Positions 10,118 through 11,413 of a stretch of DNA of 11,413 nt are shown one piece after another; positions within the stretch are counted from its first letter, which is position 1; each line of letters starts with the position of its first letter. Below the pieces are notes generated by a model, which saw only the letters and a list, made by a program, of their open reading frames with translations, did not search any database and was not told the origin of the DNA. The stretch lies in the IMG/VR virus record IMGVR_UViG_2579779002_000004; one strand, 5' to 3'. A program made the translations under genes and the position numbers. The stretch is from a virus (Duplodnaviria; Heunggongvirae; Uroviricota; Caudoviricetes).

Positions 10118-10142
10118 TGAACCGCCCCGGAAATCCTGGAGA
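10118..10142. repeat. Left terminal inverted repeat of the IS629-like element
   Basis: TGAACCGCCCCGGAAATCCTGGAGA; the internal part is mirrored at 11403-11413 (TCTCCAGGAAA). The right repeat is incomplete in the window. Confidence 0.6.
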
Positions 10143-10171
10143 CTAAACTCCCTGAGAAAGAGGTAAACAGG

Positions 10172-10498
10172 ATGACTAAAAATACTCGTTTTTCCCCCGA
10201 AGTCCGTCAGCGGGCGATTCGTATGGTTCTGGAAAGTCAGGATGAATATGACTCACAGTGGGCGGCAATTTGTTCCATTGCCCCAAAGATTGGCTGTACG
10301 CCGGAGACTCTGCGTGTCTGGGTTCGCCAGCATGAGCGGGATACCGGGGGCGGTGATGGTGGGCTCACCAGCGCTGAACGTCAGCGTCTGAAAGAGCTGG
10401 AACGTGAAAATCGTGAACTGCGCCGCAGTAACGATATCCTTCGCCAGGCTTCCGCTTATTTTGCGAAGGCGGAGTTCGACCGCCTCTGGAAAAAATGA
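10172..10498 (+). CDS. IS3-family transposase OrfA (helix-turn-helix / leucine-zipper part)
   Basis: 108 aa, [55 protein letters not shown]...[40 protein letters not shown] lies upstream of the ATG. The ORF ends in an A6 run. Confidence 0.9.
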
Positions 10499-11385
10499 TG
10501 CCACTGCTGGATAAGCTGCGTGAGCAGTACGGGGTCGGACCGGTATGCAGCGAACTGCATATTGCCCCGTCAACGTATTACCATTGTCAGCAACAGCGAC
10601 ATCATCCGGATAAACGCAGTGCCCGTGCGCAGCACGACGACTGGCTGAAGAGAGAGATACAGCGCGTATACGATGAAAATCATCAGGTGTACGGTGTGCG
10701 TAAAGTCTGGCGTCAGTTGTTACGGGAAGGAATCAGGGTGGCCAGATGTACAGTGGCGCGCCTCATGGCGGTTATGGGACTTGCCGGTGTTCTCCGGGGT
10801 AAAAAGGTCCGCACTACCGTCAGCCGGAAAACCGTTGCCACAGGTGACCGCGTAAACCGTCAGTTCGTGGCAGAACGACCTGACCAGCTGTGGGTGGCTG
10901 ATTTTACTTACGTCAGCACATGGCAGGGCTTCGTCTATGTGGCGTTTATCATTGATGTGTTTGCCGGATACATCGTGGGGTGGCGGGTCTCATCGTCTAT
11001 GGAAACGACATTCGTGCTGGATGCGCTGGAGCAGGCGTTGTGGGCCCGTCGTCCGTCTGGCACCATCCATCACAGCGATAAAGGCTCTCAGTATGTGTCA
11101 CTGGCCTATACGGAGCGACTAAAAGAAGCCGGATTACTGGCATCAACAGGGAGTACAGGCGACTCGTATGACAACGCGATGGCGGAGAGCATCAATGGTC
11201 TTTACAAAGCGGAGGTAATACACCGTAAGAGCTGGAAAAACCGTGCAGAAGTGGAACTGGCCACACTAACGTGGGTGGACTGGTATAACAATCGACGATT
11301 GCTGGGAAGGCTGGGCCATACTCCTCCGGCAGAAGCAGAAAAAGCTTATTATGCTTCCATCGGAAACGATGATCTGGCAGCCTGA
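10495..11385 (+). CDS. IS3-family transposase OrfB (DDE catalytic part), in the -1 frame relative to orfA
   Basis: 296 aa with integrase-core motifs ([56 protein letters not shown]). Overlaps the orfA stop at AAAAAATGATG (10490-10500), consistent with programmed -1 frameshifting to give an OrfAB fusion. Confidence 0.9.
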
Positions 11386-11413
11386 GTTCACAGATAAAAC
11401 ACTCTCCAGGAAA

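Follow-up and report, generated by a model that had tools for sequence, protein, structure and literature searches.

An IS629 copy antisense to the late genes of a lambdoid Escherichia coli prophage, and its likely place in the spacer between R and Rz

Prophage genes and the IS629 copy

The stretch of DNA analyzed here (the window, 11413 bp) belongs to a lambdoid prophage (head module of HK97 type, tail of lambda type) in the E. coli draft genome GCA_000627965.1. It carries late genes on the minus strand and, at one end, an IS629 element whose two genes run on the plus strand against them (Table 1), the orientation that had been given in the initial annotation of this DNA. A pair of Rz and embedded Rz1 lies upstream of the genes for the small and large terminase subunits, all on one strand, which is the arrangement expected of a lambdoid lysis cassette. 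The distance between the element and the first late-strand ORF, previously put at about 80 bp, measures 78 bp, counted from the ATG (10039) to the first IS base (10118).

Table 1. Features of the IS629 copy, its insertion site, and the prophage late genes in the window (a slash marks the insertion point; L-numbers denote compared loci).
Feature	Position	Strand	Evidence and remarks
IS629, left terminal inverted repeat	10118-10142	+	25 bp, TG start; identical to the annotated IS629 left-end repeat (AP000422)
IS629, orfA	10172-10498	+	108 aa; Pfam HTH_Tnp_1, E=2.4e-12; identical to Sakai H0117
IS629, ALIL frameshift pseudoknot	10453-10569	+	Rfam RF01497, 121.5 bits (gathering score 50), full model 1-117
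IS629, orfB	10495-11385	+	296 aa, DDE (rve) catalytic part; Pfam HTH_21, rve (E=9e-28), rve_3
IS629, right inverted repeat (first 11 of 25 bp)	11403-11413	+	Aligned to the AP000422 right inverted repeat
Predicted target site, CCAG or CAG	10114-10117		Empty site ...TTTCCAG/TTTGGTAATTG in L002, L021, L026
R-Rz spacer, promoter-distal 78 bp	10040-10117	-	Spacer of 292 bp when uninterrupted
Membrane-like ORF, first late-strand ORF past the IS	9908-10039	-	43 aa; phrog_4906, E=4.5e-21; RefSeq hypothetical
Small ORF	9789-9944	-	51 aa; phrog_3246, phrog_1115; annotated in L002
Small ORF	9691-9777	-	28 aa; phrog_4493; annotated in L002
Rz, inner-membrane spanin	9222-9689	-	155 aa; Pfam Phage_lysis, E=1.3e-49; phrog_13, E=7e-76
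Rz1, outer-membrane lipoprotein spanin, embedded in Rz	9284-9469	-	phrog_3198, E=1.9e-31; Pfam Rz1 on homologue
TonB_C-domain lipoprotein, moron downstream of Rz	8557-8883	-	Pfam TonB_C, E=9.7e-15; RefSeq 'TonB family protein'
HNH endonuclease, adjoining the terminase genes	7818-8183	-	phrog_589; Pfam HNH
Terminase small subunit (TerS)	6964-7527	-	187 aa, full length; Terminase_2 on identical-length homologues
Terminase large subunit (TerL)	5306-6967	-	553 aa, full length; TerL_ATPase, TerL_nuclease
Prohead protease-major capsid fusion	3305-5242	-	645 aa, full length; Peptidase_S78 + Phage_capsid
Portal protein	1729-3093	-	454 aa; Phage_portal
Repeat-containing protein after the portal gene	671-1732	-	353 aa; phrog_2271, phrog_1289

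The IS629-like identity proposed for positions 10118-11413 is fully borne out by the comparisons. This segment corresponds, on the plus strand, to positions 1-1296 of the 1310-bp IS629; against the annotated copy in VT2-Sakai (AP000422, mobile_element 'IS629', 1310 bp with 25-bp inverted repeats) it shares 99.3% identity over 1296 bp, with nine substitutions and no indels (E=0). A megablast search of phage records returned many IS629 copies from Stx phages that match all 1296 bases with 99.3% identity, and the nearest copies among complete E. coli genomes are 99.8% identical to the one in the window. The ISfinder threshold for isoforms is about 90% nucleotide identity, and the gapless match to IS629 is far beyond this level.

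Members of the IS3 family, to which IS629 belongs, have imperfect terminal inverted repeats of the form 5'-TG...CA-3' and duplicate 3-4 bp of their target site. The copy in the window begins at 10118 with the TG of TGAACCGCCCCGG (the stretch 10118-11413 opens with TGAACCGCCCCGGAAATCCTGGAG), and the 11 visible bp of its right inverted repeat are identical to those of IS629, the terminal CA falling past the contig end. Both ORFs are full length, orfA with its HTH domain and orfB with its rve domain, and they overlap by 4 bp (ATGA, 10495-10498). The ALIL pseudoknot spans this overlap and an A6 slippery run (10490-10495), so that a programmed -1 frameshift signal is predicted; homologous IS copies are annotated with 'programmed frameshift' in RefSeq. 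The OrfB protein differs from Sakai H0116 at three residues, all of them conservative substitutions. Judged by its sequence, the copy is apparently functional and recently acquired. IS629 is among the commonest insertion sequences of E. coli, with matches in 4253 of the 5426 complete genomes.

The first of the remaining late-strand ORFs is not a holin gene: this 43-aa ORF belongs to a PHROGs family of unknown function, and its exact sequence is extremely widespread (present in 11331 blocks of the collection). We also rejected a 90-aa ORF with a TTG start (9789-10061) as a holin candidate, since it has no Pfam match and is represented as small ORFs of unknown function in RefSeq and PHROGs, and since the true class II holin gene is found beyond the endolysin gene in relatives. 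The 43-, 51-, and 28-aa ORFs (9691-10039, minus strand) are hydrophobic and their PHROGs matches are only to families of unknown function; the products of the latter two match the same families (phrog_3246 and phrog_4493), pointing to a small membrane module that has been duplicated.

Annotations of the lipoprotein-like gene downstream of Rz (8557-8883) conflict, PHROGs giving 'Rz-like spanin' and Pfam giving TonB_C; the gene occupies the position of bor in lambda. At the other end of the window, the ORF at 671-1732 contains a 162-bp (54-aa) tandem repeat (1137-1516, minus strand; 2.3 copies, 92% identity). Versions of this 353-aa protein in relatives are 299, 353, or 407 aa long, that is, they differ in steps of 54 aa, and in some RefSeq records the gene is fused to the portal gene (861 aa) or flagged as frameshifted. 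Contig breaks at this repeat are probably due to variation in its copy number.

Contig end, insertion site, and uninterrupted loci

It had been pointed out that only the left junction of the element (TTTCCAG/TGAACC) is visible, and this holds, the window being a whole contig that ends in the IS. The window is identical, over 11413 bp, to the reverse complement of contig JJLV01000011.1 of the draft WGS assembly GCA_000627965.1; both window ends are contig ends, and this contig cannot extend the sequence. In the Sakai copy, the last 14 bp of the IS, missing here, read ACCGGGGCGGTTCA. Because the draft assembly broke in a repeat at this contig end, their absence, like that of the right junction, is an effect of assembly and not of biology. 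The final IS629 base of the contig is position 1296, so that precisely the terminal 14 bp of the right inverted repeat are cut off; the opposite end of the contig falls within the head-closure gene.

The IS-free flank at 8400-10117 matches many complete E. coli genomes at 100% identity. At the insertion site, the complete E. coli genomes L002 and L003 run on as ...AAATTTCCAG/TTTGGTAATTGACTAATC...; upstream on the late strand, these loci contain the remainder of the spacer, the lysozyme gene rrrQ, a YdfR-family gene, and a class II holin gene, and beyond the holin gene a gene for a NanS-p-type SASA esterase, tRNA genes, and genes for a DNA methyltransferase and the antitermination protein Q. 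In the source genome, the genes for holin, endolysin, and Q, with pR', would be expected on another contig. Two further loci with an empty site are nearly identical to the window outside the IS: an ENA metagenome contig (L021) has three mismatches in 10118 bp, and GCA_966549195.1 (L026) has two mismatches and one gap in 10118 bp and extends 629 bp into the lysozyme gene. The distance from the lysozyme stop codon to the start of the 43-aa ORF is 292 bp in 16 of the 17 tabulated uninterrupted loci (all 10 distinct contexts with the exact 43-aa ORF, and six of the seven further empty-site loci). In the exception (L022) lysozyme is directly upstream of Rz too, yet the spacer has diverged and the small ORF is not the same.

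Since the empty-site relatives all continue into the R-side spacer, the insertion point can be placed between R and Rz. By this comparison IS629 is inside the lysis cassette, in the 292 bp of non-coding DNA that separate R from the small ORFs, Rz, and Rz1; the holin and endolysin genes would be on the promoter side of the element, and no ORF in the window is disrupted by the insertion. The initial annotation had instead placed the IS between an upstream late-control region and the lysis and structural genes, a position that L021, L026, and the other empty-site loci contradict. The uninterrupted loci thus uphold an insertion into a continuous site, but this site would be the spacer between R and Rz and not the interval between Q and S.

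The same left junction is present in a second, independent assembly (GCA_053192715.1, contig JBRTPH010000056.1; L020/L027), which matches window positions 1-10448 with two mismatches; this match takes in the junction and the first 331 bp of the IS. None of the 5426 complete E. coli genomes searched has the junction, and it was not found in the phage collection, the GTDB representative genomes, IMG/VR, or the JGI metagenomes. The predicted right junction (GGGGCGGTTCA-N0-8-TTTGGTAATTGACTAATCATGAG) gave no match in the genome and metagenome collections; look-ups by exact protein returned the source contig, the second contig with the junction, and the empty-site relatives, none of which traverses the whole IS. 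Present in two assemblies and absent from the collections searched, the junction looks like the product of a recent insertion confined to one lineage. In line with a recent insertion, the late ORFs are all as long as in intact relatives (TerS 187, TerL 553, protease-capsid 645, portal 454, and connector 108 aa). The CCAG/TGAACC junction, common to GCA_000627965.1 and GCA_053192715.1, could mark this lineage for strain typing. In GCA_053192715.1, the tape-measure gene (L020/L027, 12770-15930) appears as two called ORFs (701 and 337 aa), vs 1080 aa in relatives; this may reflect prophage decay in that isolate or lineage, or an assembly error.

The far side of the element and late transcription

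We consider it probable that an intact-looking IS629 sits in the R-Rz spacer as a simple, collinear insertion and that the late operon is read through. On this account, IS629 would have transposed into the spacer between R and Rz/Rz1 of a lambdoid prophage, antisense to the late operon. Because the right junction was not recovered in the searches, a simple insertion with a CAG/CCAG duplication is what we infer; the sequence would then read ACCGGGGCGGTTCA at the right end of the IS, followed by (C)CAGTTTGGTAATTGACTAATC, i.e., (C)CAG-TTTGGTAATTGACTAATC. The far side would most likely be collinear with the empty-site loci: a 3-4 bp duplication of CAG/CCAG, the rest of the spacer with its hairpin (see below), and then R, and beyond R the genes ydfR, holin S, nanS-p, the tRNAs, and Q. 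On induction, Q-modified polymerase from pR' would traverse the 1.3-kb IS, as it would the hairpin after R, and the Rz/Rz1, terminase, head, and tail genes would stay expressed, perhaps at a reduced level, which would match VT2-Sakai/Sp5.

Lambdoid late operons depend on Q, and RNA polymerase modified by lambda Q resists both intrinsic and Rho-dependent terminators. In L002, the segment from the endolysin gene to the insertion site contains a strong terminator-like hairpin of 15 pairs with T-rich tails on both strands (10810-10842); in the source genome this hairpin would be expected about 90 bp past the IS. With such a hairpin just downstream of R, the genes beyond R would already need antitermination (read-through by Q) even without the IS. 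The late (minus) strand of the IS contains no predicted terminator-like site. In VT2-Sakai/Sp5, an IS629 copy is likewise antisense in the late operon, between stx2/nanS-p and the S, R, Rz, and terminase genes. This insertion upstream of the lysis region is described as not disrupting phage function (Asadulghani et al., PMC2669165): after mitomycin C, packaged Sp5 genomes reached at least 10^10 per ml, and a K-12 lysogen, which has no other prophage able to complement Sp5, gave infective particles (PMC2669165). Given the hairpin after R, the lack of a terminator-like site in the IS, and the precedent of VT2-Sakai/Sp5, read-through appears a better-supported expectation than silencing for the window prophage, possibly with some polarity.

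On the minus strand, we found no promoter-like site in the IS and the flank leading to the downstream late genes that could substitute for pR'. A promoter-like site on the plus strand of the phage flank (10033-10062; CTGACA, an 18-nt spacer, and TG-CACAAT) points into the left end of the IS, about 110 bp upstream of orfA; such sites are no more numerous than expected by chance in this region.

The opposite outcome, transcripts from pR' that end inside the antisense IS, would leave Rz and the packaging and head genes silent and the prophage without particles, and the initial annotation had suggested such silence for the packaging and head module. The IS does lengthen the untranslated RNA by 1.3 kb of antisense sequence, on which Rho-dependent polarity classically acts; no late-strand promoter-like site between the IS and the downstream genes offers a rescue, and the split tape-measure gene of the other IS-bearing assembly is as expected under relaxed selection. 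We nevertheless judge this outcome unlikely, as polymerase modified by lambda Q is resistant to both types of terminator, no terminator-like hairpin was found on the late strand of the IS, and the late ORFs of the window are all intact. Moreover, the IS in VT2-Sakai/Sp5 has the same relative orientation and is upstream of all lysis and morphogenesis genes, and this phage is productive and infective (PMC2669165). A partial polar effect, under which holin and endolysin are made with little spanin, terminase, or capsid protein, would turn the prophage into a 'lysis-only' element, kept in the lineage of the two assemblies and able to release cell contents without virions; we regard this as improbable.

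The far side could also differ from the collinear arrangement, the right side of the IS lying outside the window: an adjacent deletion or recombination mediated by IS629 may have removed or moved R, S, and Q/pR', with the late module left as an orphan remnant. In CEC03102 an IS1203 separates nanS-p from ydfR, an interval in which the annotation shows no holin, and the holin gene of O157 strain 4276 is split by an IS3-family element; with such IS-associated damage to the lysis region in these strains, a rearrangement keeps a modest probability. It is made a minor prospect by the simple insertions with duplications that are seen wherever both IS629 ends are readable (VT2-Sakai and strain 108), and by the left junction itself, which is at a clean IS terminus and at a position where near-isogenic empty-site phages have uninterrupted sequence. 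As for the junction being an artifact, a draft contig from about 2014 with its end in a multi-copy repeat might be a chimera that wrongly joins the IS to the prophage flank; however, the junction is exactly at the IS terminus, and its presence in identical form in the independent GCA_053192715.1, with 331 bp of the IS attached, makes a chimera very unlikely indeed.

Comparison with other IS insertions in prophages

IS629 insertions in E. coli lambdoid prophages are common and well described, and the finding is already known in kind; the insertion in the window is an ordinary further instance, with a site that is new among the collections searched and an unremarkable anatomy. IS insertions in prophage lysis regions recur, and the significance of this one is mainly for annotation: the contig end explains the cut IS, the insertion point is corrected from between Q and S to between R and Rz, and the experimentally characterized case of Sp5 cautions against taking such an insertion to silence a late operon.

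The element itself is IS629 of the IS3 family (alias IS1203 or IS1203v in STEC), and the VT2-Sakai copy has the same left inverted repeat, OrfA protein, and pseudoknot as the copy in the window; the two copies differ by the nine substitutions, by three residues of the OrfB protein, and in their insertion sites, the VT2-Sakai copy being flanked by a 4-bp duplication (CTTT). Other, independent insertions of IS629/IS1203 type are found in CEC03102 (L031, approximately 4711-6020), between nanS-p and ydfR, and in O157:H7 strain 4276 (L001, 10277-11796), in the holin gene; those in CEC03102 and strain 108 run against the late genes.

E. coli strain 108, a complete genome (NZ_CP028693), has an IS1203/IS629 near the start of Rz (codons 2-3), flanked by a GTT duplication of 3 bp (L030, 4388-5697). 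Similar to the window, this is the same type of IS, antisense to the lysis genes and within the R-Rz interval of a lambdoid prophage; in strain 108 both IS ends are visible, and the sequence on either side is collinear, lysozyme and holin genes lying on the far side. The strain 108 copy interrupts Rz, whereas the copy in the window is intergenic, about 430 bp further upstream.

In Sp5/VT2-Sakai as in the window prophage, an IS629 runs antisense to a Q-dependent late operon, with Rz, the terminase genes, and the morphogenesis genes downstream of it. The two are different phages, Sp5 having its own Q/pR' system and different head and tail types. The IS of Sp5 is in a nanS-p-like ORF between stx2 and S, with the whole lysis cassette downstream, whereas the IS in the window is between R and Rz; in the window prophage, unlike in Sp5, S and R would be upstream of the element.
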